Of a DNA stretch of 64,000 bases, positions 663-47,656 are shown piece by piece. Under the pieces are notes generated by a model that worked only from the letters and a program-made list of their open reading frames with translations, searched no databases and was not told where the DNA came from. A program made the position numbers and the translations under genes. Position 1 is the stretch's first letter. Every line of letters starts with the position of its first letter. This stretch comes from Blasia pusilla (taxonomy: Eukaryota), in assembly GCA_050084515.1 (NCBI GenBank), contig CM114271.1, forward strand, positions 49,538,001 through 49,602,000, in the 5' to 3' direction.

Positions 663-3360
663 CCAGATACATCAATTCCGTAGGAATTATAGGAGTTGTT
701 TTTCATTTAGCATGCATGATTTGGGTATGCTAAAGGGCACAAGGATCCATATTGAGTTGTCTAGCGACACGTTGATCTTCCGACGACCTTACAGGTACAA
801 TGATATGGAGAGGGCTCTGATTCAGAGTAAGAGCCAAGACTTGATTGGAGCAAGATTAGTGGAGATGTCACATGGAGAGTATGCATCTACCATTGTCATA
901 CCCGCCGAGAAGGATGTGCATGGCAACTGGACAGATACGTGGATGTGTGGAGACTACCAACCAATCAATCGGCAAACAAAGTCTGATAGGTATGTTATGT
1001 CCACTCCTGAGGAGATTTTTGATGCTATTGGGCATGCAAAGGTCTTTAGTTCATTGGATCTTTGAGCCAGAGACCATCAACTGCCTAGCAGATTGGAGGA
1101 CATGCAAAAGACGGCACTTTGGGCATTGATCCTCACAGGAAGGATTGCTTGTACCAGTGGCGTTTCTTACCATTTGTGTTAAAAAACGCTCTAGCTGAGT
1201 TTGAGAGGGTCATGGATAGGATCTTGGCGGATCTAGATTTTGCAAGGTGTTAAATTGATGACATTGTAGTCTTTAGCGCCGCGGTTAAGGAACATAAGTG
1301 TGGCGCTTGAGAAGCATGAGCGACATCTAGAAGAGGTGTTTTGACGATTGCAGTTACATGGGTCGAAGCTACATCCAGGCAAGTGTAAGTTCTTCTACTA
1401 CCAGATTTAGTACCTTGATCATATGATATACCGAGATGGCCTTGGTGTGCAGTAGACCAAGGTAAAGGCTATTTCATGAATTCCATGCCCTACAGATGTG
1501 AGTCGAGTTCGTACATTCATGGGATTGCCAAAATTCTATCAACCATACATCAAGGGTTTCAATTCAATTGCAAAGCCTCTAATCTTGTTGACCAAGGTGG
1601 ATGACAAGTGGCAGTGGGGGGATGAGCAGGAGAGAGCATTTCAACTACTCAAGGACAAGTTGACGTCCGCATCCATATTGAGGATCAATCAGGGGACGTC
1701 TTTTGCAGTTGCACATAAATTGGAGCATTTTGGGGCTTGCAGCGGTGCTCACCCACCATGACGATGATGATAGAGAGGTCGTGGTGGCTTACGCTAATCG
1801 ATTGAACAACATTGCACAGGCAAAGTATAGCTTGTATGCAGGTAAGTGCTTGGCTACAGTATGGGCTGTTGCGCATTTCAGGTGTTATTTATTCGACATA
1901 TGGCCAAGATATTCACGAGGATGGAGTAGTCTTGGAGTATGTGTGTATTGGCAGCGTCGCAAGCACAGCGGGTGCTAGAAAGTAGGATCGAATCTTAGAG
2001 CGAGCCAGACGGTTCCGGTGAGAGGGAACACAAGTGTTGCGAGTTTGGAAGGATGGTAGAGTACGTATAGTGCCTCATCCTTCATAGAGAGCACGGTTGG
2101 TGTGGCATGCCCACAAGGAGTTGGATCATTTTGGAGTGAAGTGGACGTACAGCTTGCTCCAGATACAGTATTGGTGGTGAGGCATGTAGATTGATCGATG
2201 TTCAACACATTGTTGTCCATGGTGTGTGATTAGGTCCGAGCATCGTTTAATGCTTCAACTCCAAAATTTCATCCACTTCTGATCATGGTTTTAGGTTATG
2301 GATGGAGTTTGGATTTTGCATGACCTTTACTTTTTATGGAGCGCCATAGTTGTTATGTGTTGGTGTTGGTCGAACACTTTTCGCAGTGGATAGAGTTGGT
2401 TGCTTTGTCTGACAAAGCAAATGAGAGAGTAGTATATGCATTCCTAGATAGAGTGTTAATTTTTTATGGCACATCAACTGAGGTGTTGACAGACCAAGGT
2501 ACGGAGTTTTGCGGGGAGTTTCAGGCCTTAAGTGATCAGGTGTTGATCAACCATCGCACCACTTGGCGAGATTTTCTTGAGCCGGATGGACTAGAAAAGA
2601 GGGTTGTGTAGACAATGAAGACTCGAAGAGAGGTTTACGCAAGTATGGATTGCAGAGAGGTCACCTAGAAGATTGGGACCTTCAGTTGTCATGGTTGGCG
2701 ATGGGATATAGATTCAACACGAAAGCCTCCCTAGCCTCTTTCTCACGGATTGTTGCTTTATGGCTGAGAGCCATATTTTCCTACTGCCATTTGTGGAGAT
2801 GTTGGTGAGGTGTTGAACCTTGATGGCCTTTATGTATGGATGCAAGTATTTTCTTAGAGGGATGAGTTGTTTCCGAGAGTGATGCCCATAGCGTCTGAGA
2901 ACTTGGCGATTGCACAACATCGGGATACGTTGAGGTATGTGACTATTCGGGAAAGGTGATTATCAACCTACTATCTGGAGGTTTCACTAGCTTGGGAGAC
3001 TATTTCTACTTGCAGCAGACGACACCCACGACGTGGGATATTACTACGAGGTGCACCATCTTGAGAGTGCATGAGGTTTTTCCGTCTAGTATTTTCTTAT
3101 TAGAGGGACGCGATGGTATGGTTTGGAAGGACCATGTGCGTAACTGTGCGCCATTTCACCTTCCTAACATTGGCAATATAGTTGATCTGAGCTTAGTAGT
3201 AGTTCCTACATGCTTGCGATATATATTGTGTGGTTCCGCCGGTGGTGCAACCACTATACTAGTATGTGATGGATGTTCAAGATGATGGCATATGGCATGT
3301 ATGATACCACCTCTCACTAGGGTTCTTGGGAGATGATGGATGTGCCCTAGATGTACCTAG
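663..3360 (+). pseudogene. Ty3/Gypsy pol pseudogene (RT, RNase H, integrase, C-terminal PHD finger)
   Basis: ORFs 712-1065, 1498-1761, 1703-1978, 2336-2611 and 2956-3285, broken by stops and frameshifts. Confidence 0.9.
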
Positions 3361-4302
3361 GTAGTTATAGATTCCGACTTGTGTCTGTGACATGGATGAA
3401 AAGAAGGCGACTAACGATGGGGCCATATGAGCACCTCGATATTTTGCTTAGCGTCTTAGAGATGTATGTCATGGTAGGTAGGGATTGATGGTTGTCCGGA
3501 GTTAGAGGGACCTAATCACCAACTACGGGAGCAATTGGAGATATTTTGGTACTTCTCGTCTCGTTGTGCGGATTTCATGAGTTAGCATGGGATCGTGTGT
3601 GTTTTTATGTGCATTCGATGACACTGATGTATGTTGTGTAATGATGTGTATGTGCACAATAATTGTCATGTATTTTAGGATAGATCGACGAGATCTAGTA
3701 AAGAGTATTCGCAAGTAGTGAAGGATAGCCTCAAGAGGTCGAGGACGACTTGCTAAGGCCACGTGTAACCTGAGAGAGCAGGTTTTCCCTTTGTTTCAAC
3801 TCATTTGGAGCCATATATAGAGACTCACTATTTTGGGTAAGTTTCCATCTTGAGTATAGTTGACTTTACACTTTTGGAAGTGACCCTTGACCCGCTACAG
3901 TAGGTCAAGAGGCAAGGAGGTGACCTACGAGCATAGGTTACTGTGGAGAAAGCTTGGGAGAGGGAAGGGGGTATATCTCCAAGAGATAGAGCTTGAGATC
4001 TCATTTTCTCTTTGTTGAACTCTTGGCATGAGGCAGCACTCCAATGATCCTCCTTGCCTTGTGTGTATAACCCAAGCCTCTCATTAGGAGAGTGGGTTTG
4101 GTTTAACATGAGAGAGAAAGAGAGAGAGTTGTGCATATTTGTGAGACCTTGTGATGGAGAGATCCACTTGATTTATTGGAGATATTTTGGTAGTTCTCAT
4201 CTCGATGTCTATATGCCATGAGTTAGCATGGGATTATGCGTGTTTGTATGTATTTTTGGTGACAACAATGTATGTTGTGTAGCAATGTGTATGCGTACGA
4301 CA
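663..4302 (+). mobile_element. Degenerate Ty3/Gypsy element, 3' part (RT-RNaseH-integrase-PHD plus B1-A2-B2 repeats)
   Basis: RT fragments (RRPYRY, MCGDYQPIN, FSSLDL, C*IDDI), RNase H, integrase (VEHFSQWIE, LTDQGTEF) and PHD remnant. Collinear with the element at 28636-38376. B1 ~3536-3661, A2 from 3664, B2 ends 4302. Confidence 0.9.
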
Positions 4303-12529: not shown

Positions 12530-13377
12530 TTTTGATAGTCTAGACTCTAAAACGGAATTAGCGCTCCTAGAGGTCCCAATTGCCCAATGCACCTCGAACG
12601 AGTTTCAAGTCGGACCCAATATCTAAGTCATAGGTCAAGGTCCAAGGTTTATATCCATAATTAATCCCCTTGGACTTCGCTTAGTGTCTACACCTCAAAG
12701 CCAACCTCTCGATCCATCTTGTACCTTTGGTTCACCCCCACGGTTCTCCAAGGTGGGTTTGGATCCAAAGCTCCCTTGGAGAACCTTCCCCTTATATATA
12801 CTTCTAGAGATCTCCATCCCTCCCTACCTTTGGGAAAGTCCTCTTAGACCAATTCTTCTGGCCCTCAATCCAACTATCATTTTGATAGTTTAAGGGTGAT
12901 TTCTCAATCTCTACGCATGCGTTTTTCTGGATCCTTAGTGCGTTGAAATTTTCTTCTCCTAATCTTTCCAACGCCACCTTATTTATCTCAAACATATCTT
13001 GGGTCTAGCCATCATGACTTCAAACGCAAAGAACCCCAAACCTTTAGTTAAGCTCCAATTCCCTTGGCGTCCAACTCTTATGGGACTTAAGCATCTATCA
13101 AGTCTTGCTTGGTGTTTGGTATTGTTCTACTGGGTCATGACCAGCATCACTTGAGACGCCTAAAAAGACTCGCGTCTCGCTTACAACTCATGTCTCATTT
13201 TAGAGACTCTGACGCGTTTCCCTCCAAGTGTGAGCTCACTAGAGTTCTGACGTTCCGCATCATCGCACGTTTGGCTACGAGGATCGGGGAAATCACTTAC
13301 ATCGCAAGGGTGAGATTTTGACACTTCCCGTCTCCCTTCTCAAGCTTTGCGAGCCACACTCCATAGGATGGATTACA
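12530..13377 (+). mobile_element. Solo-LTR-like repeat, with an inverted copy at ~45150-45900
   Basis: Shares blocks such as GGTCAAGGTCCAAGG, CTCCCTACCTTTGGGAAAGTCCTCTT and CCAACCTCTC with the reverse complement of 45600-45870. Has a TATA-like motif and ends ...TTACA. Confidence 0.6.
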
Positions 13378-14310: not shown

Positions 14311-15192
14311 TCTATATAATAATGGGCGATCACATATGCACGATACGACAAGATAGCGGATCAATAAGACAAAATATGCAACATCTTTTTGTTTCTTAGC
14401 CTTGTTAGACGGGCAGAAATAGAACAAAGGAAACAAATAAGGATTTGAGTGGAATATATATCAATCAATTCATACTTATTTTAATATTATAATGGGTGAT
14501 TATAAATATTAATAAAATATGATAAATAACCAAAATTTTAGAGTTTTTATTTCAATTCATAATTGATGAAAAATATAATAAAATTTTAAGAGAGGAATAG
14601 ATTTTTTAATTTTATGGTAAAAATAAAATTACTTAGCATATTGAGATATCATTTAAATTTGAATGGAGAATTGTAATTATTAAGAATAGTGAAATGTTAT
14701 TATTCTTTTAAGATTTTGGAAAATAGAAATCTGAATGGAAATTTTGAAATTTGAGGTAAATAATATAATCATTTTTTGATAATTTTATCAACTCACAATA
14801 TCTTGGGATAATAAATTTGCATGGAAAAGTATCTCATTCAACAAAATTAATTAAGATTTTTATTAGTAAAGATTATTTTGGTGGAAGAATGGAAGGAGAG
14901 AATAATTATTATTTGAGCTTCTACCAAAGAGTGAAATTATTTAGAGGAGATGGGTGTTATTTGAAGATGAAATTTTGTTACTCTTTTAAGATATAGTCAG
15001 AATTATTCTTAAATTTTAAAATTAAATAAATTTACACATAACTTTAAAATTTTATTATTACTATATTTATTAAATCTATTGGATAAAAAACATTTCGTAA
15101 TAAAAAAAATTTTAATTTGCTTGCAATATGATTAATGAAAATTCTTCAAATATTTTTTTATGTTCCGTACTCCGCACGGGTACCTTTCTTGG
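14311..15192 (+). mobile_element. Non-autonomous Helitron-like element
   Basis: A|TCTATATAATAAT 5' end, very AT-rich body, 3' hairpin CCGTACTCCGCACGG followed ~10 nt later by TTGG|T (degenerate CTRR). Confidence 0.55.
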
Positions 15193-26400: not shown

Positions 26401-28635
26401 GAAATTGTAGCAAAATTGGAAAAAACTTAGCTAGCAATTGGAAACCCAATGAGGAAGTTTATGCAAACATTCAAAAGCATACACGAAGCAATTTTTTTTG
26501 CTTTATTTAACATTTATGAACAAAGGTGATTTACATTTATCATCTTGGTCTTTTCCATTCATAACTAGCAAAAATCTCCTTGCCCATGTCTATGGTTTTG
26601 GTTGCGATGGTGGAAATGAAAAAATCCTCATCCCATCGCAAACCAAAAAATTGTGTCTGCCCTCTACGTACTCCCACTTGGCATTCCCATCATTACAAGG
26701 ACCATATGATTGAATGTACCCACCTATGTTATTGCAACGTATGAAGTCATCGTCTATATATCGTCGATGGCGAGAGTTGCACATAGTAGTAGCATGTAAG
26801 AACAAGAGATACTTTGAGAATGACGAAGCTGCATGGACAAGCTCCAGTTAATCCTTCCATGTAGTATGTAAGTATATGGGACCAAAGTACGAGAATAAGA
26901 TGAGCTAGTCATCCACATCACATCCCTTGAAAAATACTATTCTATTGAGCACAAACACCCCAATACTAGTTTTAAACCTAAAGTAGATTATTTATCTATG
27001 TATCTGATACCCCATGATTCTATCGACACACCAAATGGTAGATGGGCATCCTAATGGGATCGCATTGCACTCAATGTAGTACTCTATTGAATAATCTCTA
27101 AATTGCAATTGCACGGGTTCATGTATATTAGGTACCATGCGTAAATCCTTTTGGATCTAGACCCAAGATCAAGTACCTTTGGAAAGGGATCTATAAATCA
27201 AGGGTTGATGTGAGATGCTCACTCAAACAGGGTTAATCAAACTCAATCTCAAAGGGAGGGAGGGAGTGGGACAGAGATTCGAGAACCAACTTTATAGTAT
27301 CACGCATAAGTGTACATATATCCACCCATGCATGTTGTCATGAAGGGTTGCATCGAGGGGTGTGTTAGATGATTTATTTATTTTTACATTCTTGTGTGAT
27401 TGTGCAAACATACTAGGAAGGGCACATGCACGCACCTGCATGTAGCCATATATTCAGCCTAGTGCCTAAAAATTGCAAAAAATCAAACCAAAAAAAGGAA
27501 GTCGTCTAAGCATTATTTTTTATGTTAATTTTTTCCTTTCTACTATGAACTAGAGGGGGTATTGGGGGAGATCCTTCATGGATTAGATACGAGAATCCAC
27601 CACATGTGGACAATTATACCCTTTTTTCAAGGGCCATAGCTCAAATGGGGGTTCCTTTGATCCAAAGTCAGAGGGAGGAGGTCGAAAAGACGTTCCATAT
27701 TTGTGTCAAGTGTTGTGGATCACAATCTCAAATCCACAACTATATGTATGGAGGCACATTTTCATGTGTGGCAGGAGAAGTATCACCTTCACTAATCTAT
27801 GGATGTTCCTAAAGTTGATGTTCCACCATATCGGGGGACATAGCGAGGGTGGGTTTGGAGATAGCTAATGGTGGGTTAGCTACAACCAACGAGGCAATGA
27901 CAACACCCCCAATGGAGCACAGGCATATAAGAGCTCGGACCATGAGGAGCCTCATGTTAGAAACTTCAAGATTCCCAACTACCGATAAGGCAAAGAAGTT
28001 ATCTCACCTCATCTACATGCATGTGTGTGAGTAGCATATGTTTGTTAATAATAAGTGGCTTGATACGACCCCCATGTATCAATAAACATCTAGAACTTCA
28101 TTATTGCAGAGTTCTAGAAAGGCGTAGAAATATCTATGGAGTGATCTTGAGGTACACTTCCGATCAATGTCATAGGGAGTGGGCACCAATTACAGATCCT
28201 TGTAGAGACCAGGTTGACATGCAACAATTGGCAAAGGCGCAATGTTTGCATCTAAAGGTGCAAGCGAGACACTTCTTCAACCAAGGGGGAGTAGATGTAT
28301 TTTGATATACATTGAGAGTATGTCTTACCTTATAGGAAAAATAGAATTTACAAGGTAGTTCATGTTATATACCGTTTAATTACTATGATGTGTCTTTAAG
28401 GTTTAACTAACTATGTGGGTGGATTGTGTAGTTCAAAGTATGGAGAGTATCTGACTCCCTAGATCATGTATGATGTGGCAAGTTTGGAAGATCCGAGATA
28501 ATGTCTTTGCTAACCAAGATGTTATAGCATCCATGGTTAATTACTAGCACTAGAATATTCATGTTATAGTCTGATGTTTAGGTTACTTTAAGGTTGTTGA
28601 AACTACTAATAGTTGTTGGTGCCTATTGTGCAACA

Positions 28636-28769
28636 TATCGTGCGCATACATATCGCTACACAACATACATCGCTGGTCACATCTACACCACACAACACCG
28701 ATCTTCCCCACATACGGGTCGATCCACACATGTACAAAAATCAACTCATACATATACGTGGAGATCACA
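28636..28769 (-). repeat. Terminal repeat segment B2
   Basis: Direct repeat of 29249-29382, about 4 mismatches in ~133 bp. Confidence 0.95.
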
Positions 28770-28772
28770 AAA

Positions 28773-29246
28773 AAAAATAAAGAGTAGTAAAAATGGCACA
28801 CCCGGCCTAAAACTCCACTCCTCAATCTACATCGGCATATCGAGCCTCGTCCACCTTGTGCTATCAAGGAATCCGGACGCTAGCACCCTAGTCCTATCTC
28901 ACACACATACAAGGGAGGTGCTCCAACGGCCCAACATGTTGGCTTAGGAAAGCCATCTTCCTCTCTTATGCAGGGTTGGGAAGAGCCAAAAGGCTCTTCC
29001 CCTAAAGATAGCCCTCCCCTTGGTAACATGCGCGCATAGGTTACCAGGGGCGAGAGACCTGGTCAACAAGTCACCCGGTTGTAAAAATCCTCAAAATGAA
29101 AGTTGTCAGAAATGACGTTCCTGACACAATGGACCTATCCTCAACCTCATATGACACCGTGGGACAAAGTTACACTCAACATAGTCCGCTGGCTCCTGCG
29201 CCCTATCCATGATAGATCTCGGCCTATCGGCTATTCAGATGTGACA
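28773..29246 (-). repeat. Terminal repeat segment A2
   Basis: Direct repeat of 37897-38376. Begins TGTCACA on the - strand. Confidence 0.95.
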
Positions 29247-29248
29247 GC

Positions 29249-29384
29249 TATCGTGCGCATACATATCGCTACACAACATACATCGCTAGTCACATCTACA
29301 CCACACAACACCGATCTTCCCTACATACGGGTCTATCCACACATGTACAAAAATCAACTCATACATATACATGGAGATCACACA
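29249..29384 (-). repeat. Terminal repeat segment B1
   Basis: Begins TGTGTG just after the PPT and is joined to A2 through a 2-nt GC spacer (29247-29248). Confidence 0.95.
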
Positions 29385-29385
29385 A

Positions 29386-29396
29386 CCGCCCCCCTA
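29386..29396 (-). promoter_or_regulatory. Polypurine tract (plus-strand primer site)
   Basis: TAGGGGGGCGG, 1 nt upstream of the TG that starts B1 and ~70 nt after the pol stop. Homologous ACGGGAGCA precedes B1 at ~3525. Confidence 0.7.
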
Positions 29397-29462
29397 GCTG
29401 GCAGTTGGATCCCCCCAACTCCAGATAGAAAATATCACATCTCTCTGACATGATCTACTACC

Positions 29463-30776
29463 CTAGACACATCTCTGACACATCCATCGTCCCATGGGAA
29501 CCACATCAAGAGGGGGGGTCAGACATGACATATGCCACCCTCGAGAACAACCATCACATACCAACATGGTGGCTGCACCCCTCACAAATCCGCACAACAT
29601 ACACCTCAAGCCTGCAGGTACCATTGCCAAGCTTGGATCCACCGTCCCATCTACGTTTGGAAGATGACATGACGCACAATTGCGCACATGATCCTTCCAA
29701 ACCATACCATCCCGTCCCTCCAACATGAGGACTCCGGTCGGTAATACCTCGCGCACACGTAGGATTGTGCACCCTATAGTGACATCTAGCGTCGTGGGTG
29801 CCACCTGCTGTAAATACACGTAATCTCCAGGATGAAACCTCATAATCCTTGGACGATAACCTCCTCCATGAATGGTCACGTACCTCAATGTATCTCTATG
29901 TTGGGCAATAGCTAAGTTCTCAAAGGCCATAGGCATAACTCTACGAAAAACTTATGCCCTCTAAGAACATGCTTGTACCCACACATCTGGATCATCAAGA
30001 TCTAACACCTCCGCCAAGTCATGTCGAATCGCTGCAGGTAAATCTGGCTCTCTCCCAAAGAGCAAAAAGTACGGTAAAAATGACGCCAAGGATGCATGCC
30101 GACTAAAGCAATAACCCATAGCCAACCATGGCAACTGTAGGTCCCACTCCCTCAACTGTCCCCACTGCAAGCCATACTTGCGCAATCCTCTCTTCACCGT
30201 TTGTACCACTCTCTCCGCCAACCCATCCGCCTCACGATGATCTCTGGACGTGGTGCGGTGATCTATCAATGCCTGATCACACAAGGCCTGAAACTCTCCC
30301 CTGAACTCGGTACCATGGTCAGTCAACACCTCCGCCCGTGCACCAAAGTGACTAAGCACACGATCTAGAAACGCATAAGCTTTTCTCTCGCTCGCCTTGT
30401 CTGGTATTGCCACAAACTCTATCCACTTGGAGAAATGTTCCACCATGACCAACACGTACCTATGATGACGTCCCGTCAATGGCAAAGGTCCCGCAAAGTC
30501 TAAACTCAACCGATAACCTAAACCCATAATCGGCAAAGGATGTAACTGCGGAGTGGGAGCATTGAAGGATGCTCACACTCTGTCACATACCATACATCTG
30601 GCCACAAACTCTTGTACCCCAGTATGCATGCCGCGCCACCAATACTGAACCTGGAGTAAGCTGTAAGTATGCTTTACTCCGAAATGTCCCAACTCCTCAT
30701 GGGCATGTCGCAGTACACGTGCTCGCTGGGAAGGATGAGGTACCATTCGTATCCTACCATCTCCCCATACCCGCAA
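29463..30776 (-). pseudogene. DDE integrase (HHCC, core) with C-terminal PHD finger
   Basis: HAHEELGHFG...CMVC; SLDF, LTDHG, LAER catalytic triad; terminal CMLC-x11-CDGC-x4-HMSC-x14-CQRC (C4HC3). Confidence 0.93.
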
Positions 30777-30821
30777 AATGTGAGTCCCCTCCCACCTGAA
30801 CCTAGGATCCGATCCCGCTCC

Positions 30822-32539
30822 CTAGCACTCAATGTACTCGCCAATGCGCAAGAACTCCACAACCTCCACGTCGTCATGGATATCACGACCACCTGCCGCC
30901 TCCTCACTAACCTCCGGATCTAAAGACTCATTATCCAACCCCACCACTGGAGTCATCACCTGTGGTTGACCTGCCATAGTCAACCAACAAAGATAGGCAG
31001 ATGCATGCCAACTGGGCACCATCTCCTCATCACTCTCTCCGTGCCATCGAGCTCTTGTGTCGTCTCTCTGACTCGGACATGGGTTACGACTCAACCCATC
31101 CGCATCCTGGTTCAGCCGACCTGGCCTATGAACCACCTCAAACTCATACTCTTGTAGTAATAGAGCCCACTTGGCAAGCTTTTCCGTAAGCTTTTCGGAC
31201 TCCATCAACCACCTCAATGGCTGATGATCAGTGATAAGTGTGAAAGGGTTGCCAAATAAATAGCACGTGAAATGTGCCACGGCCCACACTGCAGCCAAGC
31301 ACTCTCCCTCATAGGAGCTGTACTTTGCCTCTGCAATGTTGTTTGATCGACTCGCGTAAGCCACAACGAACTCCCTCTCCTCGTCATCCCTCTGAGTAAG
31401 CACTGCTCCTAGACCCAACATGCTCCAATCCGTATGTAACTGGAATGGGCGACCCCTAACCGGTCTCTGTAAAATGGGTGAGGACGTCAACCTGTCCTTG
31501 AGCTCATGAAATGCTCGCTCCTGATCATCTCCCCACAACCACACCTGATCAAGTCTCGTCAACAAGGTCAAAGACTTTGCGATCGCACTAAAACCCTTCA
31601 CATACCGTCGATAGAAGTTCGCCAGTCCAAGAAATGCTCGGACTCGACTCACATCCAGTAGGGCGTGGAATCGCAATAGCCTCTACCTCCAAATGCTGAA
31701 CGCCTAACCCACTCGGGTATATGGTGTGTCCCAAGTACTCAATATGCTCTTGAAAGAATGCACTTGCTGGATGTAACTTCAGTCCATGTAATCGAAATCG
31801 CTGAAACACCTCCTCCAAGTGTCGCTCATGCTCCTCAACCGTGGAATCAAGATAAGAATATCATCTATGTAACATCATTACAAAAATCCAAGCCAGCCGT
31901 AATCCTATCCATCACTCTCTGAAACTCTGCAGGTGCGTTCTTCAACCCAAATGGTAAGAACCGCCACTGATACAAGCAATCTCTCCCGAACCGATCTATC
32001 CCCCAGAATGTTGTCTTCTCCATGTCCTCCAACCTGATAGGAAGCTGATGATAGCCGGCACGGAGATCTAAAGTACTGAAGATCTTTGCATGCCCTACCG
32101 CATCAAATATCTCCTCACGAGTAGGCATGGCGTACCGATCTAACCTCGTCTGTCAGTTGATAGGACGGTAATCTCCACACATCCGCCTATCCGTCCAATT
32201 GCCATACATATCCTTCTTCGTCGGCATGACTGTGGCAGATGCATACTCCCCATGTGATAACTCCACAAGTCCTGCCTCCAACAAGTCCTGACTCCTGCTC
32301 TCAATCAAGGCTCGCTCCATATCAGAATACCTGTAGGGTCGACGAAAGATGGGCGTATCACTAGCCAACTCAATCCGTATCCTGGGACCCTTCAGCGTAC
32401 CCAAGTCTCTCATACTGAAGGCAAAACAACTGACATGCCTTCTCAGAAACCTATGAACTCGCCGTCGCTCTCCTCCTATCAACTTGAGACCTATCACAGG
32501 CTCCCAAGTCTCCATCGTGACCTTACTCGGAGAGGACAC
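30822..32539 (-). pseudogene. Reverse transcriptase and RNase H (frameshifted)
   Basis: RRPYRYS, RMCGDYRPIN, FSTLDLRAGYHQ, LPFGLKNAP, CYIDDI (shifted frame); RNase H LHTDWSMLGLGAVL, YSSYEGECLA, ITDHQPL. Confidence 0.95.
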
Positions 32540-32829
32540 AACCTCCGGCTTTGGTTGCTATGTAGCAACCCTAGCCACCTCCGCAACAACCACTCCACTT
32601 TGACCTCCTACACCATGCTCCACTTCCGAAAAATGAACATGTGCTACTCTAGCCGCCTTTGCACTCTCTGCTTGAATGACGTCCCAGGAAGTCCATGGGT
32701 GCCTATCTCTCCTCGTCTCGTCCCCAACCAATGCCTATACAGACCCTGTAGGCAATGGTCCAACTCGTGGACGTGACGGCATGGATGACACTCGCATCCG
32801 TCTTTGCTCAGCCATACCTAGGATGACTA

Positions 32830-33832
32830 TCCATGTGACAGTTGAGGTCCATTGCCTGCCCCAACACCTGTCTCCGGGATGCCTCAGTCATCCCTGGTAC
32901 CGCCGTAGTACCGGTAGTGAACCCCATGGCGCGTTCGCGCTCATCTGTTGTAGGCTCCTCCAATGCTCTGGTCACCTCATCCCAAATCATGCTTGGCCCT
33001 CCCTGACGAAAGGCATGGGATGCTGGGAAGCTGGGAAGCTCACCAACGTAGGTAAGGCTGCCCTCAACTCCCCCACCCTAATGGCCATGGCCAACGGTGG
33101 TCTATCATCCCGTGTCACCACCTAAGATTGACACCCTGAGCCCAAAATAGCATCCACTGTGAGATGTGGTGCTCTTTGGGCCCCACCGTATGCTCGACTC
33201 AGTACCTTTGATGGTATCAGGTTCGTCCACCACAGTCGTTGACGATGGGCATGTGACCCAACTCTCGCTGCATCTAACAACACATGAGGTCCCAACCAGG
33301 ACTTCACCTGATGTACACTCGTCATCACACGTGCACGAGTGTCTCCCAACAATGGCACGTTCTCCAAAATGTACGATGGAGAACATATCTGACTCTCCTG
33401 CAAGTGTCGTACTACTTGCAGCATCTCCCAAAACATCCCTGAACTCGGATCCTGCAATTCAAATACTCGTCCAACTGATGAATGACCCTGAAATGGCCAT
33501 CCAAAAATCACCAAATGAATGGTGCCAACTTTATCCAGATCCTGCGCCCCCACCAAAGAGATGTCGGCAGGTAGCGTATGCTGATATCCCCGTACTGCAG
33601 ATACCGGCAACAACTCATGATACCTCTGGACCAATCTCGCCACGTGACGTAATGATACTCGCCGTGCGGTCTCATCTCTCTCCACATAAAGATACCGATG
33701 CACCCGTATGCCCGCCTGCAATAGTGCAGCCAATCCGGTGCTAATCCCTCGGAAGAGATCTAACACCCTTACACCCTCCTCTCGGCACTGCCACACAACG
33801 GGTGTGGTATTCAATGGGGTCAACGTCTCCAC
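32830..33832 (-). pseudogene. DNMT3-like C5 cytosine DNA methyltransferase domain within pol
   Basis: Motif I RVLDLFRGISTG, II YLYVE, IV LVIFGWPFQ (PCQ with Cys to Phe), VI ILENV, VIII HAHRQRLWWTNL, IX ERERAMGF, X RRQVLGQAMD. Broken by TAG at 33122-33124 and an 8-bp duplication (GCTGGGAA x2, 33022-33037). Confidence 0.93.
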
Positions 33833-33991
33833 TCCAAGAGTCCGATTGCCACGTGACTCTCGCTGCTATGGGATAAAAACATGACTCCATGCCTGCCTCA
33901 CGAGGTCGTCGGCACTCCTCTGTAGCTCTCAAGTCGTACCCCACAATGGTGAAGAGGCCTCGCCAACATGGGAAGAGACACCCGCCATGGC

Positions 33992-34737
33992 CTATCTCTC
34001 CGTGGGACTATCCGCTACTGGGACATCCTCCGCATGTGCCTTCCCCGCCAACAACTCTCCTAGCCAGCTAACACTACATGTGAAAGCTGCCAACGTGGTC
34101 ACAGACTCGCCTCGTGATCGACCACCTTGTCCCGCAAACTGCACGGGTAATTGACTCATCCGGCCGTCACCTGACCGCCATCCTGGCTGATAAGCAACGG
34201 TCTTCTCCCAGAAGTCTAGGATGAATCCTAGGGGATATAACACTGTACTCCCCACCAACACATCGTACGACTCAACTGGTGTCGTAATCGCGCGCAGCGC
34301 ACCATAGCACTATCTATCCGTCGATGCTCTAGCCTGGACTCGACAACAATCTCTTGTCGAGTCATATATTGAGTGGGTGACACCCCCCCAATCGAGGTCT
34401 GTATCTGGAAGGGACAAGGCTCAATGTCGGCCTTCCGTAACCCCAACGCTAAACACGCCGCCTTCCCTAACATCAAGGGTTGCGCTCCCGAATCAAGTAG
34501 GACGCGCTGCGGGTGGTATACTGTCCTCATCGGACTAACCAAGAAAAATACTCCATCTCGGTTATCCAGTAACACTACTCCAGGTGTCACCACTGCTCGC
34601 TCTATGGCCGGTCGAGCTGGCATAACTACTAACTTTGCCGCCGCCTCATGCCATGATTGTGTGGGGAACGTCTCGATTACCGACTCTGAGGGTAAGTCCA
34701 CCACCTCCTCAACTACATATGAACAAGAAGCAGTCAT
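33992..34737 (-). pseudogene. Aspartic protease region
   Basis: VLLDSGAQ active-site motif; C-terminal DVLVGSTVLYPLGFILDFW after a frameshift. Confidence 0.88.
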
Positions 34738-34899
34738 CTCTCAACGCTCACACAATGTGGCGGCTAACCGGAACACCTCAGCTGGTCCAACTCCCAACGT
34801 CGCCAACTCTATGGCGGAAAATAGTGGAGTCTGACTCACTCTGGTGGCCACCTCCAACACTATGGTCGACACTGACTCCACTCGAGCCAGCATAGGAGT

Positions 34900-36626
34900 T
34901 GTCACTCCAACTCCTCGTGATGTCGACGTAGGTGCCTGAGCTGAGGCACCGCTGGTCGTCGAGGAACCATCGATGGTGTGTGTAGTGCCTCCGACAATGT
35001 GAACGACTGTGGAACCCTGGCCTGCCGCCCATCGGTCCCCTCTGGTGGGTCAATCTCAACTCCACCTCTCGATGGCTCGGTGCCTCTCGCAGCACCCCGA
35101 GTCACCATTGCAGCTGCCTCAACCTGGGCTGCACTACACATAAATCCCATACTAGCGAGATCCTCACCCTGGTCAGGGTAAGAGGTAGAAGTTGGAGTCA
35201 CACTAGCTGCTCGCAGCTCCGTGCCTTCCCTAAGCTGCATCATCGACATGGCAGCAATCCTCTGCTCCAACGGATCGATGCGTGAAAGGAGTGCTAGCTC
35301 TGGTGCTCCTGCTCCATCTCCTCTGGCTGGTGGTGGTCCTCTACCACCACGTCTAGGAAGAACTCCCCGACCTCCTCCAAGACGACCGCCCCCAGGCCCT
35401 CGGCCTACCTCTGGACGTGCCCCTCGGCGAAGGTCAAAACATCTATCCCTAGTGTGACCATATCGGTGGCAATGGTCACACTAGTGCTGTGGTGGGCCAT
35501 CCTCTTTGGTCATGAGCAATCGGAGGCGTTGGTGGTCCTCTCCCATGTTGTGGGCAGTTTCTCTGCCTATGGGCCCCTCCACACATCCAACAAGACCACA
35601 TCGGTCCCTGTTGGGCAACATATGTAGGTACGGGTCGTTGCCTCATAGGCTCACGGTACCCGCCCTGCTCTCTAGGCACACTAGCCCGCTCTTGTGGTAC
35701 TGGTGCTTGTTGTGGCACCTGTGGGGTCATCGTCGCTCGTGGACCCGTCGACTCTCGAGAAAATCCAGCGGGCACTACCTGCTCCTCACTCATGTTGAGC
35801 TCAATACGCTCAGACAACTCAAAGACCACCTTCAATGTAGGCTTCGCTGTGTGAATCAACACCGCATCTCGGACTCTCCTCCGTAGTTCTCAGTCCATAA
35901 TCTCGTACCAATACTAGATTGACTATGCCTCAGTCACTCCAAACGTAGCAATGATCAACCTCCTCATGCGTGTGAATGCCTCTCTCAGACTCTCACCCGA
36001 TTGTTGCTAAAAATCCTGTAGACTCTTCACTTTTTTGTGCACGCATGGGAGCTCTTCCCCAACCGCCGAAGAACTCCTTTGTGGGGCTGGTGGGTGGCCC
36101 TCTACCGAGAGGTCTCGCCACATCGCTTTGTCTCTCACCGCCCTCCTCTCCATCTAGTCTCCGGGCTGATGGTGTGGGTCTCTCTCCTTCCACAATCCCA
36201 TCATATGCCTCGCGACCACTAGTGGACACATACCCTGTAGCCCAATACATCCCTCCAGGCATCGATCTCTACTGAATATAGTGATCAAAACTCCATGTAG
36301 TCATCCATCGCAGGACCCTCCAAGTGCTGGAACAACCCCTTCCATGCCATGAAAGGGTTGAACCGTGTCGGGGTCTGTATCTCTTGGAAGTCGCACCATG
36401 TGTCGAACTCTTGGATAAAATCATCTAAGTCAATGGTGCCCACTGCACCCGAGAAACGACGCATGCCCCGATGGCCCATGTCGCTCATCTCCTGCCAAGT
36501 ACTACGATCTCTGTCTGCGATCTCATCACCAGACCCAGTGTCCAGTGATGACGATCCAGCCACGGATGGATGTCGAGGTAGCTCCTCACTGGTAACCCCT
36601 CGATATCTCACTCCACTCCGTGTCAC
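34900..36626 (-). pseudogene. gag with two zinc knuckles
   Basis: FSGAVGTIDLDDFIQEFDTW...HLEGPA retrotransposon gag; CWMCGGAHRQRNC and CDHCHRYGHTRDRC knuckles; RGG-rich tract. True start may lie further upstream. Confidence 0.85.
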
Positions 36627-37882
36627 ACCACTACTACTGCTCGCACTACCCCGTTCTTCCGAACCCTGGAAGAATGCAGTGATGACAAACCCTATCTCAC
36701 CCGCTCAAGCACTCAGACTCACCGCGAGTCTCCCATACTCCTCACTAGCTTACCTATGCTAACATCAATCTCGTGATGTCATACCCGGCCTCACGCACAC
36801 TCAACACTCGGGCTCACCATGAGCCTCCCAATTGACTCACCTAACCTAGCGATACTCTCTCGGGTCATACACGCGACCCCTACTCGGCAACCGCCGTATA
36901 TCCGCCAACATGCTACACATGAACATAATCTACACTCGTCATCATCACTGCACCCACCTAGCACCAGCAACTACCCGATACCCAACACTCTCAATCACAC
37001 ACGACAAGTGCCGGAAAAGGGACTCGAATGGGTAACCTGATCAGACCCTCCAACTTGCTGCACCATCAACATGCACTCCTCCACGTGATATGACAATCTC
37101 CGCAACACAACACTCTCCTTGACCAACACGTCGATCCTCCCGTCAATAGATGCGGACAACCCGTCGGCATCATGCGCACTGCCCCTCCATCGTCAACTCT
37201 CGCAACGCCCTGTCGCGCCCCAAAAACATCATGTCACGCAAACATCTCCGTCCATCCCCACACGCGGCATGTAACCTGACTCACCGTGGTCTGGCTCCAC
37301 TCCAACCACGTATACCTTGTCCAACCACGTGAACATGACCCCGACCACATCCAGATTGTCAACGATGTCTGCCCGACTGACCACGTCTGTCCATGCCCTA
37401 CCACGTTCGCCGGACCGACCTCGTCCGTCCTACCACATTGGAGGGGGGGTAATCTGGCCCGCGGCCCTATGCGGCCCCTTGGGCCCTAAATGCCGGGAGG
37501 GGGCCTCCCCAACTTTTGGGGAGGGTGCAATAAATTGGGGGGGTGCACGCCATCGCGGCCCGCTGTCCGCTCGTCCGCCCGTCCGCGCCCGCCGACCTAA
37601 ACACCCATCAGCGCCCCCAGTGGCTACAAGCCGTAACTCTCTTTTCTTCTCTCTCTAGACACCCTCACTCGCGTACACCCGACGCCCACTCCGTACTACA
37701 CTCTACCGCTGTCCCCAATCCTTGTGCACCAACAAAATCTGAGAAAAACGGATAGCGCTTCTGCCCACGGCCTTCCAAACAGAAAAATGACAAACACCCA
37801 CAACACACGCGTCTCCAAGGGCTCTCCACCAAGGCAACTGGCCTGCCTACCTGCAAACAAGGAATTCCCACCATCCCCCTGA

Positions 37883-37893
37883 CATCTTTCTCA
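37883..37893 (-). promoter_or_regulatory. Putative self-priming primer-binding site (11 nt)
   Basis: TGAGAAAGATG directly follows the ...TTTTACA end of A1 and is the exact complement of 38071-38061, which lies 31 nt downstream of TATATAA. Confidence 0.75.
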
Positions 37894-38376
37894 TGTAAAA
37901 ATAAAGAGTAGTAAAAATGGCACACCCGGCCTAAAACTCCACTCCTCAATCTACATCGGCATATCGAGCCTCGTCCACCTTGTGCTATCAAGGAATCCGG
38001 ACCCTAGCACCCTAGTCCTATCTCACACACATACAAGGGAGGTGCTCCATCAGCCCAACATGAGAAAGATGGCTTGGGAAAGCCATCTTCCTCTCTTATA
38101 TAGGGTTGGGAAGAGCCAAAAGGTTCTTCCCCTAAAAATAGCCCTCCCCTTGGTAACCTGCGCGCATAGGTTACCAGGGGCGGGTGACCTCGTCAACAAG
38201 TCACCCGGCCGTAAAAGACGTCAACATGAAAGTTGTCAAAAATGACGTTCTTGACACAATAGACCTATCCTCAACCTCATCTGACATCGTGGGACAAAGT
38301 TACACTCAAGATAGTCCGTTGGCTCCTACGCCCTATCCACGATAGATCTCGGCCTATCGGCCACTCAAATGTGACA
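37894..38376 (-). repeat. 5' terminal repeat segment A1 (TG...CA, 483 bp)
   Basis: Direct repeat of A2 with TGTCACA...TTTTACA termini. Not preceded or followed by a B copy. Confidence 0.95.
38096..38102 (-). promoter_or_regulatory. TATA box of the retrotransposon promoter
   Basis: CCCTATATAAGAG on the - strand in A1; CCCTGCATAAGAG at the same position in A2. Confidence 0.7.
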
Positions 38377-41300
38377 AACATGACATGTCTCATCCAAATG
38401 ATTGAGTGCTTGCGTCACTTGGGTTGGATCCAATTGTGGAATTGGACCATTTAGATGAGAATGACGCCTCCTACAATGAGGAGGAGGAGGAAGAAGAAAA
38501 GGAATAATATGATGCAAACGAACTCAAGAATCGCCTTGCTGAGCAAATAGTTACGCTTAGGCATAGCATAAGCTCATCCTCGAGTAATGGAGCAAGTGGG
38601 CCCATTTGTAGTAGACACCACATGGGTTTTGGTAGTATCAGTAATAGGGGTATAATTGGTGTGTAGTTACATGCTCTAGTAGTGTTCAAAGGCACTTCTT
38701 CAAGTGCTGTACCTTCTATGAGTCTAGCATAACCTTGTCCACATGGAACATTAGGTACATGGCCCCAAAGTAGATAGAATAAGAACTAGTGTAATTTTTT
38801 TTAATTTTATGTCTAGTTTGTAACTCATTTGTGAGTATCAAACATACCTCATTTGCAAGTATGCAACTACATTTTGAGTACCGTTCAAGTCATTGCAAAT
38901 GTATTGCAACTAAGTTGTGGGTAGTTGCGATTGAGTTTCGAGTGTAGTAAACTGGAAGTTTAGAGTTGTAAGGAAGTTGCAATGTGTGGTTCAAAATCTT
39001 AGCCATATGATATCTTTCGGTTGATCTATGATATCTTGCGGTTGCTTAACCACTATATTGTGACTAAATTTGAGCTTTTGGCACTTGCAAGATAGTTGTG
39101 AATGTGGTAGTGTTAGGATTAGCCAATGTCCTTAATAGAGTAGATTGGTACTAATAATGGAGGTCTTTATTTTGGAAATTGAGATTTCTAAGCAAGCTTC
39201 AATTTTCTATTCATTTAGGCATGTTGAGATTTATAAAAATCCATTATCTATAGTAAAGGGGCATAGTTGCAAAAAAAGACTTGTTTCTCAATGGAGGAGA
39301 TGAGGAAATTGGGAGAGGAAATCATCATCTCAAAGATCTCAATGGAAAATGAGACAAAATAATGCCTTTTGCAAAGACAGTCATAATGATTATGTAACTC
39401 TGTGTCACTACATTGTATCAATCTACTTTATGCCACCACATGTATCCAAATTATCTTCAATATAATATCAATAACTACCACATCAAAATCCTACATTTTA
39501 TATAATGAGAGAATTGTCCATGGATTTGTGCATCTCTCGACATGTGGGTGCTAAGTTGCTCTACCAATCAATAATGAATATAATATTATGTTCACATTGT
39601 GAGTGACTATCTTTCATCGCCTACAATAGAACGTGATAGAAGCATCTCAAGTAAATATAGAATCTAATAACTCTAACAATATATGGAACTAAATATATAG
39701 GGATAAGCCTATTCACAACTATATTGTAGTATCACAGATAAATTATATGAGAGATAATCCAAAAAAAGAGGTTTGAGTATCTATTCATGAGCATATCACC
39801 TTTCCAATGCAAGGGTGGACATGAGAAAAACTTTAAGCTAATATTTCCATTGGATATGATGCCTAACTCTAAACTCTACCACAAAATAAACTTTCCTCAA
39901 AGATGACCACCCTATTGATCTTAGAGAGCTAGAGAGAGAAAATGTTGAATAATTTCCCTACCCTTTATTATATTAGCGTCTACATGCGCTCTTAAACAAG
40001 ACTATAAGAACACCAATTTTGACAAATATGGTGAATTACAAAATTTATAGGTTTCTAACTCACTTGAAAAATAGAATTTCCTTAAAGTTGTGCTTCTAGG
40101 TAAAATTATGACTTAAGTTCATTTAATTTGAATCAAAATCTTTCCCACAACAACAAGTCCAATTCTTTATTCCACTCATTTTCATTTGCAAGTAATTGAG
40201 TCTCTTTTTTCCAAAAAGGATTAGAGTAGGAAGCTAAAATGTTCCACAATAGATTAGTTTATTTTTCAATTCTTCTCAATATCTCGTGCGTACGATGGCC
40301 CAAGATTCATTAAATGACAAAATTTGGCAAAAATGACAAATTTCCAAAGACCTTCTTTTAGTCCTTCTTATAGTCATATGTACTTGCATTAATAGAAGGA
40401 AAAATGGCTTGTGTTATGATTCGTGAGAAAAAAAGTTGTTGTTGCCAATTGGATGGTCATTCCTTGGAAAACCCTACATCATGAAGTTCTCACGAGGATG
40501 GGGGTCATCAATCAAACTTTGTGCCATTAAAATATTGATATATAATAGTTGGAGCATGAAATTAAATGACATCATCGAGACTTGCTATGCATGGTCACAT
40601 ATATGTTGGAAAAGTGAAGAACAAGATTGCCTTCACCTCAATCGTATTTGAATGTAGACTGAAGGTTATGTGTTTAGGTTCTGTGAAAATGGAACTTAAT
40701 TTATAATTCTCTCTAAGCCTTCGTCATCTAGTCGTGGTGTCAAGGCTCCAATAGGCTAACTCAAAGGGACCCAATTAGAACTTGAGGTCTTATTCGGCCT
40801 TGATCTTCCTAAGGAGGAATAATATAATATGGTTAGTTGATGTGGGTAAAGTCCTCATGGTCGTGGCAAAGCAAAGTTTGTAGGAACTAAATTATTCTAT
40901 GACTTGTATAGAATGGTAGTTGTTGAAGGTTGAATACGGTGAGATATCTCAAACACCTCCGTGGACGGATTAGAGAAAGGATACACTATGTGTAAATCCT
41001 AAAATCTTTTGGCTTGACAACAACTCATACCGTCAGAATTAGATCTTAAGAGCCAATTGAAAATCATTCGGAACTCTATTTCCAATTTTCTCTAACCCAT
41101 CGTCTCAGAAGGAGTTGTTTCACCTCTAGAGCAACTCCTATCACCATAATACAATCTTAAGAGCCAATTGAAAAACATTAAGAACTCTAGTTCCACATGA
41201 GCTTCGACCAATAACCTATCCTCAAAGTATTTGGAAGTTCCTCTTGGCGGTAGCCCTTCAATTGCCCACAGAAGGAGTTGTTCGAGCTCCATGTCACTTA

Positions 41301-44792: not shown

Positions 44793-45150
44793 TATCATGC
44801 GTAAACATATTCCTACACAATATAATCATGATCACTATCCACACACACATAAATATAAGATATCATACTCATCCTTGATATCATCACATATAGAAGATCA
44901 TGTGCCAATATATCTCCAATAAATTTCAAGGAATAATAAATATGTAACATACACTTCATATCTCTTCGATGTCAAACCAAACCCACTCCTTGAGTGTGTG
45001 AGAGGCTTGGATTACTCAAAAGGGCAAGGAAGACCATAGTTCCACTGTCTCATTAAATAAATTTCAACAAAAAGACAATGAGCCCTCAAATTCACTCTCG
45101 TTGGAAATACCCTTTCCCTCTCCCCAAACTCTCTAATTGGTGACTTGTTG
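44793..45150 (-). mobile_element. Decayed partial solo A-B repeat of the Gypsy family at 1-4302
   Basis: Reverse complement of the B end, ATATCTCCAATAAA and GTCAAACCAAACCCACTCC blocks. Truncated where the 45150-45900 repeat begins. Confidence 0.6.
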
Positions 45151-45900
45151 TCGTGACCCTCATAACCAAACATGAGAAATGGTGGTAAAAACCCTAGTGA
45201 TTTTCACACTAGAATATACGTCGAGAAAAAAAAATCAGCATCAAAATCTCTCCAATGAGATATGAGTTGTAGAAGCAAGACGCGAGCCTTGTTTGGTGTC
45301 TCAAGTGATGATGGTTGCGACCTCGTAATGTCAAGTAAGACTCGAGAGGAGCTAAAGTACCCCAAGAGTTGGGCATCAAGGGGATTGCAACTTGATTTCG
45401 AACTTGACTAAGCGTTTGGGTGTTCTCCGTGTTTGAGGTCATAACGGTTAGACTCGAGATGCATTTTTTAAGAAATAAGATGGCGGTATAAATGTTATGA
45501 GAAGATGATTCCAACGCAATAGAGATCCAAACAAACTCATGAGTAGAGATGAGAAGTCATCCCTATGCTATTGGAATGATAGTTAAGTTGAGGGCCACAA
45601 GGAGCAGCCCAAGAGGACTTTCCCAAAAGGTAGGGAGGGGTGGAGATCTCTAAGTGTAGATATAAGCGAGAGGGTCTCCGAGGAAGTTTGGGACCCGAAC
45701 CTCCAGCTTGGGGAATTATATGTGGGTATAGGATGGATTGAGAGGTTGGCTTTGGGATGTGGACACCAAGCCAAGTCCATGGGGATTAACTATGGATATC
45801 GACCTTGGACCTTGACTTGTGACTCAAATATTTGGTCCTATCTAGAGACTCGTTCGAGTTCTATTGGGTCTTGGACTATTAAGGAAGTTTGTTCCAAGTC
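45150..45900 (-). mobile_element. Solo-LTR-like repeat, inverted copy of 12530-13377
   Basis: Shared sequence blocks in reverse complement. Confidence 0.6.
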
Positions 45901-47044
45901 TTGAAGAGCTTGCTTGTGTTCAAGAGTGTGAGCTTAGGTTGGTATTTGACCTCACCTAGATGTGTTAAGCTCGAAGGATAAGTTCATAACTTGGGAGAGG
46001 CAACTCTAGTTGACCCAAATAATGGCTAATGTGAGTGTGTTTGAGTACAGATCAATAAGAACAACATAGACTACTAAATGCTAGCTTCAATATATGAGCC
46101 TAATGTTAAAGAGGAGTAGGCACACGACAACTGTGCACACAAGTTATCTTCTTGGCTCTTGACTTGTAGTTGGGGGTCAAGGACTACGTTCTAATGAAAA
46201 TGGGAAGGAAAATATGGTTAAAATAGGATATTATTTGAAATAGCAAGTTCTTAATATATGACTCCAAATTTTTCCAAAAAAAGGGGAATTTTTTTCTCTC
46301 AATTTACCATGGTCCTCAACACGTCATCCTTGACTTCTTAAGATTGTGTTTCGACCTCCTCCTAGGCACCATATGGATACTTGTTTTGGTAGGAGCTTCC
46401 ATCCAAGCTTCGGGAAATGCAAGGTATTACTGCAGGAAAGTTCACATATTTCAAATCTTGTTGAGAAAAAAATTTCTCCTACGAATGTAGCTATCTTCTT
46501 ATTTCTTGGCCAATCATGTTTAGCCATGCCACGTAACATTATTTAGTACTAGATAAAGTATAATAAATTCCATATCATTTATATAAAAAATAGCTAAAAC
46601 TTTTGTATGATCATTCCAAAATTTACACGCGTATAACATTTAATATTTATTTTAAAAATATTTGTAACTACATTTAGTTGTACCAACTAAAGTTAGTATT
46701 TATAAAAGACATGCCCTTATTTGGAAATTATTAGACTAATAATTATCCAAATCAAATTTATTAGCAATATAATACTAATGCTACATCATTTTATATGTAG
46801 TTTAATGTAGTTGTAAGATAAACTGACGTATGACACATCAATATTTGAGGTCTGACTAGTTGTAAATATCCTAGTATTAAAATTTTATATTTCCTTCTAG
46901 TGCGGGATAAGCCGTGATGCATTTTTTGCCATGATTCAAGTTTGAGCTAAGAAATCATGTGGGACACACATTAAGAAAATAACCAACACACTCAAGTATG
47001 GGTGAATGACTTGGGAAGAATGGTCGAGGCGTACGGAAGAGGGT

Positions 47045-47656
47045 TGTCGTGCGCATACACATCAATGTCATCGAATACACAAACAAACAAGATCCCACGC
47101 TAACTCATGGCATCCAAACACGATGATGATCGAATACTAAAATATCTCCAATAAATCAAGATTCTCTCTCAATAAGATCTCTCACAAGATGCTCTCTCTC
47201 TCTCTCTCATGTCAAACCAAATCCATTGTCTTAATGAGAAGCTTGGGTAACTCACAAGCAAGGAGGACCATAGCTTTTCTGCCCAATGCCAATAGGCTCA
47301 ACAAAGAGAAAATGAACTCCAAAGCTCTCTCTCCTTGGGAATAACCCAATCCTTCCCTCTCCCAAATTCTTTCCACGGTAATCTATGCTTGTAGATAAAC
47401 TCCTTGGCTCTTAATCTGTTGTGGGGTCAATGGACACTTCCCAAAATGGAAATATAATTAACTCCACTCATAATTATAACTTATCCGAAATAATAAGTTG
47501 TTATAGATAGCTCCAAATGAACTAAAACAAAAGGAAACCTACTCTCTTAGCTTACATGTGACCTCAACATATCATTCTAGACCTCTTGAGTTATCCTCCA
47601 ATATCCTCGAAGGCTCTTTATTATAAACTCATCCATCCATTTTGAAAGACATGAAA
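47045..47656 (-). mobile_element. Solo A-B terminal repeat of the Gypsy family at 1-4302
   Basis: Starts TGTCGTGCGCATACAC (reverse complement of the B end), is collinear with 22-662 and ends CATGAAA (degenerate TGTCATG start). Flanks GGGT/GGCT form an imperfect 4-bp TSD. Confidence 0.8.

Follow-up and report, generated by a model that had tools for sequence, protein, structure and literature searches.

The window (the whole stretch of DNA that was analysed, 64 kb in length) carries a retroelement on its minus strand that runs from 38376 to 28636 and has its direct repeats laid out as A-internal-B-A-B. The 5' terminal repeat, A1, spans 480 nt (37897-38376, minus strand), begins with TGTCACA, ends in ...CTTTATTTTT and shares 92.3% identity over 480 nt with the second copy, A2 (28773-29246, minus strand). 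The first B repeat, B1 (29249-29388, minus strand), begins with GGTTGTGTGATC and ends in ...CGATA, as does the 3' terminal repeat B2 (28636-28772, minus strand). The two B copies were found to be 96.4% identical, and the consensus for the end of B in related elements is ..CGACA, compared to CGATA in the window. Directly 5' of B1 lies a polypurine tract (29389-29398, minus strand; CTAGGGGGGC). The tract adjoining B1 is also given as AGGGGGGC, and it is kept as AGGGGGGCGA in three related elements (L006, L010 and L011).

The element is bounded on the plus strand by AACA, at 28632-28635 on the left and at 38377-38380 on the right. Read from the sequence, this is a 4-bp target duplication, or one of 5 bp (AACAT) when the final A in B is counted with it. 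A related element, L024, consists of A-internal-B only (A at L024:5774, B ending at 14413) and has its own target duplication, TACA, at L024:5770-5773 and 14414-14417, with the identical 4-5 bp ambiguity. L011 likewise stops at B (L011:3474-3600), and the second A-B unit is absent. The duplications around the A...B termini fit an integrase-mediated insertion of a molecule that begins where A begins and ends where B ends. These same two ends, A start and B end, also occur fused inside the element. At the B1/A2 junction (29241-29253, minus strand), ...CGATA is followed by GC and TGTCAC..., forming a near-palindrome. This pattern (CGACA, two nucleotides, TGTCAY) was encountered at two further places in the window, 15-27 and 3657-3669, and in five relatives (L001:8655, L006:7000, L010:14599, L020:15122 and L036:6967). 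To judge from its composition, the B/A junction looks like two integrated termini fused head to tail.

The internal region (29399-37882, minus strand) encodes a degenerate polyprotein with many stops and frameshifts. From the translations, we recognized a gag region with CCHC knuckles at about 36704-34905, a protease motif at 34740-34231 and reverse transcriptase motifs at 32557-31860, all on the minus strand. A Pfam scan of 14 ORFs from this region gave matches in four of them, comprising a Dnmt3-like DNMT between protease and reverse transcriptase (33865-33125; C5 DNA methylase PF00145, 3.6e-6), RNase H (31682-30825; RT_RNaseH, 3.8e-34), integrase (30821-29964; rve, 2.4e-12) and a PHD finger (29951-29466; PHD, 3.8e-10), likewise on the minus strand. 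When the methylase ORF was compared with solved structures, all 29 of the 29 matches were to DNMT3A/B/C (best 1.2e-6). The integrase region's C-terminal end holds the PHD finger and no chromodomain. Intact relatives show the domain order PR-DNMT-RT-RH-INT-PHD. The proteins most closely related to the RNase H ORF were from liverworts (70-72% identity), with charophyte algae, including Klebsormidium, at approximately 46-50%. A fish protein was 48% identical in the RNase H region, which is only a hint on Tf1/sushi kinship. From the proposed primer site to the first gag motif that can be recognised, there are approximately 1.2 kb of G+C-rich sequence (36705-37882), in which no domain match was found.

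Two standard classes were considered and set aside. A canonical LTR retrotransposon would account for the primer-site position, the polypurine tract and the target duplication, but the ends of the element are A (5') and B (3'), which are different repeats. The DIRS order does not suit an element with an rve integrase, and a tyrosine recombinase was found in none of the 14 ORFs scanned. On its sequence, the window element is classed as a degenerate Ty3/gypsy-type element of KnitGypsy-Dnmt3 architecture. An initial sequence-only reading of this DNA had described a plant LTR element with A1 (38376-37897) as a canonical LTR. Its retroelement with a self-pairing site was confirmed, and the LTR label gave way to a Dnmt3-carrying, gypsy-type element in which A1 is the A part of DIRS-like split repeats.

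A second, related family, 71-79% identical, was encountered in pieces at 1-661, 666-4296, 44795-46342 and 47059-47654. It comprises an A'B' unit at the start of the window, a plus-strand element that is truncated at its 5' end and ends B'-A'-B', and another two A-B units on the minus strand, of which one is interrupted by an insertion (45155-45868) resembling 12583-13285. No A-to-internal junction of this family (A' and B' at 1-4296 and 44795-47654) is present in the window. B' opens with 10 nt that complement part of A' (3968-3977 / 4171-4180). This match overlaps the TATA box, is perfect in only one of four copies and is probably not meaningful.

Inverted-repeat arms at the end of repeat A

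On the plus strand, positions 37883-37896 read catctttctcatgt and positions 38058-38071 read acatgagaaagatg, forming a perfect 14-nt inverted repeat with no extension on either side. In element orientation, the upstream arm is CATCTTTCTCATGT (38058-38071, minus strand), the proposed RNA 5' end and self-primer. The downstream arm is ACATGAGAAAGATG (37883-37896, minus strand), which adjoins the end of A1 and is the proposed primer-binding site. When the 14-mer was searched with at most one mismatch, two matches were found in the 64-kb window, namely both arms, compared to 0.09 expected, and at least two matches were reached in 0/100 shuffles. In a test anchored on the repeat, the k-mer directly after A1 was matched against all 480 nt of A1. 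It was complementary over 14 nt, a length reached in 0/5000 dinucleotide shuffles of A1. The complement that had been claimed within the repeat for the segment following it is therefore real. An unanchored inverted-repeat search in 18 loci, covering the stretch upstream of the coding regions, returned 0-11 hits of at least 9 nt per region, which is background level, and all tests were thus restricted to those anchored on defined repeat ends.

The position of the arms relative to other signals agreed with the initial description as well. A TATA box, TATATAA, lies at 38096-38102 (minus strand, read 38102-38096), and the upstream arm, read 38071-38058, begins 31 nt past its first T. From this spacing, the upstream arm is predicted to sit where a TATA-driven transcript should begin. 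The absence of a TGG-type primer-binding site after A1 was upheld, the first TGG lying 23 nt from the end of the repeat, and the 64-kb window contains no tRNA genes.

We compared public DNA and RNA reads and contigs carrying the same species label with positions 37400-38500. Repeat A was found to be extremely abundant, and both DNA and RNA depth collapse outside 37881-38376. Beyond 38376, the loose ends of the DNA reads were heterogeneous (agreement 0.43-0.48), as expected of genomic flanks, and those of the RNA reads were B sequence. Reads in which A runs on into B part from the window sequence at 37896, with the junction CTTTATTTTT|GGTTGAGTGATC in minus orientation, so A ends at 37897 and the whole 14-nt downstream arm lies outside the repeat. 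The 14-nt pairing first noticed thus stands in full, but its terminal ACA, which had been taken as part of the LTR, belongs to the arm. The area around the arm showed the highest word depth in the whole repeat, and no variant at 5% or more inside either arm was among those listed.

The second copy of the repeat is damaged at this place. In A2, the arm position (28931-28942) reads CCAACATGTTGG, 6 nt shorter than in A1, the upstream arm is gone, and the TATA box has become TGCATAA. The altered segment is a perfect 12-nt palindrome that arose from a 6-nt deletion and one substitution. No such 6-nt arm deletion at 5% or more was among the variants listed from the family reads and contigs, and the arm loss in A2 looks private to this copy. 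Given these family data and the divergence of approximately 8% between A1 and A2, the loss is most plausibly a sign that this copy has decayed. With that divergence, many stops and a damaged A2, the window copy is dead.

In predicted RNA folds, the stem between the two arms closes the leader of the window element in both the minimum free energy (MFE) and the centroid structure (MFE -67.9 kcal/mol, z -2.56). The arm stem likewise closes the folds of the L010 leader, and the whole of that leader (z -0.33) is no better than shuffles. In the L010 model, it is the stem that is notable and not the whole leader.

Pairing in related elements

A profile of DNMT-carrying polyproteins led to 80 metagenome loci. 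Self-comparison of the 31 loci of at least 7 kb revealed both repeat copies in only a few. A readable junction between A and the sequence after it was available in six elements, comprising the window element and five metagenome relatives (L010, L006, L001, L005 and L024). Two loci, L020 and L036, were left out with only 82 and 221 nt of A after the junction, and four others (L029, L077, L056 and L061) were left out with no usable A/post-A junction. The end of A in the relatives, ..GACATTTTC, was set by the A2/B2 junction of L006 and by the junctions between polypurine tract and B1.

A perfect complement of 10-16 nt in the same geometry was found at four of the six readable junctions. In these cases, the first arm lies 165-188 nt ahead of the second and 26-36 nt past a TATA-like motif. 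The window element pairs CATCTTTCTCATGT with ACATGAGAAAGATG over 14 nt (0/5000 shuffles). The longest match was that of L001, with 16 nt (GACATTCTTGTCAAGT / ACTTGACAAGAATGTC), arms 172 nt apart and a position 26 nt past TATAAT. L006 pairs perfectly over 12 nt with its own A2 (AGTTCTTCGAAT / ATTCGAAGAACT; 0/5000 shuffles), and with its own A1 at 9 of 10 positions, where an 8-nt match was reached in 19/5000 shuffles. L010 has 10 perfect nucleotides (TTCTTTGAGT / ACTCAAAGAA; 10/5000 shuffles), and its A2 carries two mismatches in the arm. Weaker pairing was found in L005, with 8 of 10 positions paired (TTATTTGAGT / ACTCAAAGAT; 541/5000 shuffles). L024 showed no pairing (3004/5000 shuffles), having lost the first arm in a 14-nt deletion and kept the second. 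Another copy from the same organism as the window, seen in four RNA reads, retains ATCTTTCTCATGT and has a different downstream sequence. Together with the four junctions, it bears out the complementarity in other copies.

The arms were found to change together. Between L010 and L006, two pairs differ in both of their members, with UA replaced by CG and GC by AU. The arms of the window element and of L001 are unrelated in sequence, and each pair is still complementary. In a covariation count over the four alignable sequences, 75% of the cells were paired, compared to 28-40% with the partner slid. The corresponding shuffle control with these four sequences was not significant, the observed number of both-side changes being reached in 207/500 shuffles, as is expected with n = 4 including one broken member. 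Covariation of the two arms, put forward as a check in the sequence-only reading, is accordingly visible in the two both-side changes but not in the formal control.

In none of the examined lineages does the downstream arm begin with TGG. In contrast, two unrelated gypsy elements from the same set of metagenome loci, L016 (6991-7200) and L059 (327-500), have classical TG..CA LTRs with TGGCGA.. 2 nt after the LTR, which by its sequence is a tRNA-type primer site. In L006 and in RNA reads of the window's organism, the A/B junction consists of the base before the second arm joined to the base after the polypurine tract. This composition places the start of the minus strand at the arm.

Priming of reverse transcription

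Because the complement stands at the primer-binding position, its arms vary between lineages, it does not begin with TGG, and the A/B junction puts the cDNA end at the arm, we prefer self-priming of the Tf1 type. It is the best explanation of the 14-mer after A1, and we consider it probable on the sequence comparisons given here. The self-priming originally proposed for this element is thereby supported. Transcription would start approximately 31 nt past the TATA box of repeat A, at CATCTTTCTCATGT or close to it, and the 5' segment of the RNA would fold back onto its complement 175 nt downstream. Cleavage of this RNA duplex by the element's own RNase H would then release a 3' end as primer for minus-strand DNA, with the last base of A as the first templated base. 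For the plus strand, the primer would come from the polypurine tract ahead of B1. B and the upstream part of A would act as U3, and the portion of A from the arm to its end as R-U5; A1 by itself, we infer, comprises part of U3 plus R-U5.

The RNA data around the predicted start have to be read with the repeat structure in mind. Sense depth was approximately 30-38 on both sides of 38071, and neither a pile of read starts nor a depth step was reported there in RNA-seq coverage that is confounded by the transcribed A2 and by solo A-B copies. Separately, a set of RNA reads (13 in X19 and 7 in X20; consensus agreement 1.0) joins a 36-nt piece of A, 38034-38069, to unrelated sequence on both sides, and this piece begins 2 nt inside the upstream arm in element orientation. 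These reads could derive from a chimeric transcript or retrocopy that marks the RNA 5' end, or they could be a coincidence.

The strongest of the other explanations, which we nevertheless regard as unlikely, is that the arms form a conserved stem that closes the leader and serves some other function (packaging, dimerisation, control of translation or assistance in strand transfer, for example), with a different primer starting the minus strand. Such a stem is predicted in the RNA folds, covariation as such indicates pairing and not priming, and the A-internal-B-A-B layout means that replication is not fully canonical. What tells against it is that the arm holds, with respect to the end of the repeat, the very position that a primer-binding site has to occupy, that no other candidate primer site adjoins A, and that in two lineages the cDNA end, as placed by the A/B junction, falls exactly on the edge of the arm.

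A host RNA, whether a fragment or half of a tRNA or some other small RNA, might instead serve as primer, the match to the repeat being secondary. Half-tRNA primers are known in plant copia lineages, according to the available text of PMC6317226. However, the site varies by lineage (ACATGAGAAAGATG, ACTCAAAGAA, ATTCGAAGAA and ACTTGACAAGAATGTC), with the upstream arm varying alongside. A site that differs between lineages and starts with TGG in none of them is a poor fit to a conserved tRNA 3' end, and we hold a host primer to be improbable. Chance, or a local indel or duplication artefact of one copy, could draw on the shortened palindrome CCAACATGTTGG in A2, but it is a most remote prospect given the 0/5000 shuffles, the same feature in independent relatives, the peak of word depth around the arm and the family variants listed, among which no such deletion reached 5%.

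Known elements and a possible origin of the split repeats

To our knowledge, self-priming has been established experimentally only for fission-yeast elements and is predicted for few plant clades. Tf1 reportedly uses an 11-nt primer that is released by an RNase H cut. The window element resembles Tf1, Tf2 and Tj1 (fission-yeast Ty3/gypsy elements of the Tf1/sushi group) in that the site after its 5' repeat complements the segment predicted to form the 5' end of the element's RNA and lacks the TGG start of a tRNA-type site, with arms of 10-16 nt in the present set compared to 11 nt in Tf1. It differs from them in having split A-internal-B-A-B repeats where they have two identical LTRs, in possessing a Dnmt3-like domain, in carrying a PHD finger in place of a chromodomain, and in being known from sequence alone. 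The complementarity of the primer-binding site to the element's own mRNA 5' end is the criterion for self-priming of the Tf1/Tj1 type in the available text of PMC4600332.

Among plants, the accessible portion of the survey by Neumann et al. 2019 (PMC6317226) gives self-priming as predicted for 12% of the elements covered, including the Tcn1 clade of mosses and clubmosses and the TAR copia elements. As far as that text goes, these cases share with ours the type of predictive evidence and the setting in green plants. It contains no mention of Marchantia, liverwort, Klebsormidium, PHD or methyltransferase, and on that basis the present lineage and architecture lie outside the survey.

The architecture itself has a described counterpart in KnitGypsy-Dnmt3 of Klebsormidium nitens (de Mendoza et al. 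2018, PMC5890265), which, in the part of the article available, combines a gypsy-type Pol and an embedded Dnmt3-type DNMT with A-coding-B-A-B repeats, 'the same as that of a DIRS retrotransposon'. All of these features are present in the window element, namely the gypsy-type PR, RT, RNase H and rve, the Dnmt3-type methyltransferase inside Pol and the A-coding-B-A-B repeats. In contrast to KnitGypsy-Dnmt3, the nearest relatives of the window element are liverwort proteins and not those of Klebsormidium (approximately 50% in RNase H). It was noted that liverwort (Marchantia) proteins with the same RT-DNMT combination exist. Since the available text of PMC5890265 contains nothing on a PBS, primer binding or priming, the priming signature, polypurine tract, palindromic B/A junction and target duplication are additions to it. 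In the literature searched, the name KnitGypsy turned up in PMC5890265 only, and no paper was found that combined self-priming, retrotransposon and Marchantia or that described priming for this lineage. The mechanism is known, as are the lineage and architecture, and the link between the two appears to be new. Maintained through compensatory changes, such a signature would extend the mechanism to a separate and unusual group, the Dnmt3-carrying gypsy lineage of liverworts and charophyte-like organisms.

The element shares the A-internal-B-A-B layout, with an internal B/A junction corresponding to joined termini, with elements of the DIRS order (Ngaro, PAT-like; SymbioDIRS-Dnmt3). DIRS-order elements use a tyrosine recombinase and are not known to generate target duplications, whereas both an rve integrase and a duplication of 4-5 bp are present in the window element. 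Under self-priming, the start of the cDNA (the end of A) and that of the plus strand (the start of B) are fixed, and neither of them falls at an end of the integrated element (where A starts and B stops). With this mismatch, the hitherto unexplained combination of DIRS-like repeats with gypsy domains becomes a testable matter of circular intermediates and of internal cleavage by integrase.

Canonical reverse transcription from the primer-binding site and polypurine tract would yield BA-internal-BA and not the observed A-internal-B-A-B, so an extra step has to be assumed. A tentative candidate, which we would put forward as possible though doubtful, is a permuted LTR, in which a circular cDNA intermediate is reopened inside one LTR. 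Self-priming at the end of A and polypurine priming at the start of B would give a linear BA-internal-BA cDNA, and the joining of its ends into a circle would create the A/B junction. Integrase would open this circle at the near-palindromic B/A site (..CGACA NN TGTCAY..) in one LTR, and the product would be an integrated A-internal-B-A-B with a 4-5 bp target duplication. Retroviral integrases are reported to cleave palindromic LTR-LTR junctions. If the permuted LTR is correct, it would explain DIRS-like split repeats in an element with a DDE integrase and would make circular cDNA an obligatory intermediate of integration. A one-LTR circle, or cuts at both sites, would give A-internal-B and A-B units. 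The A-internal-B forms of L024 and L011 could reflect one-LTR circles, double cutting or simply recombination between B1 and B2.
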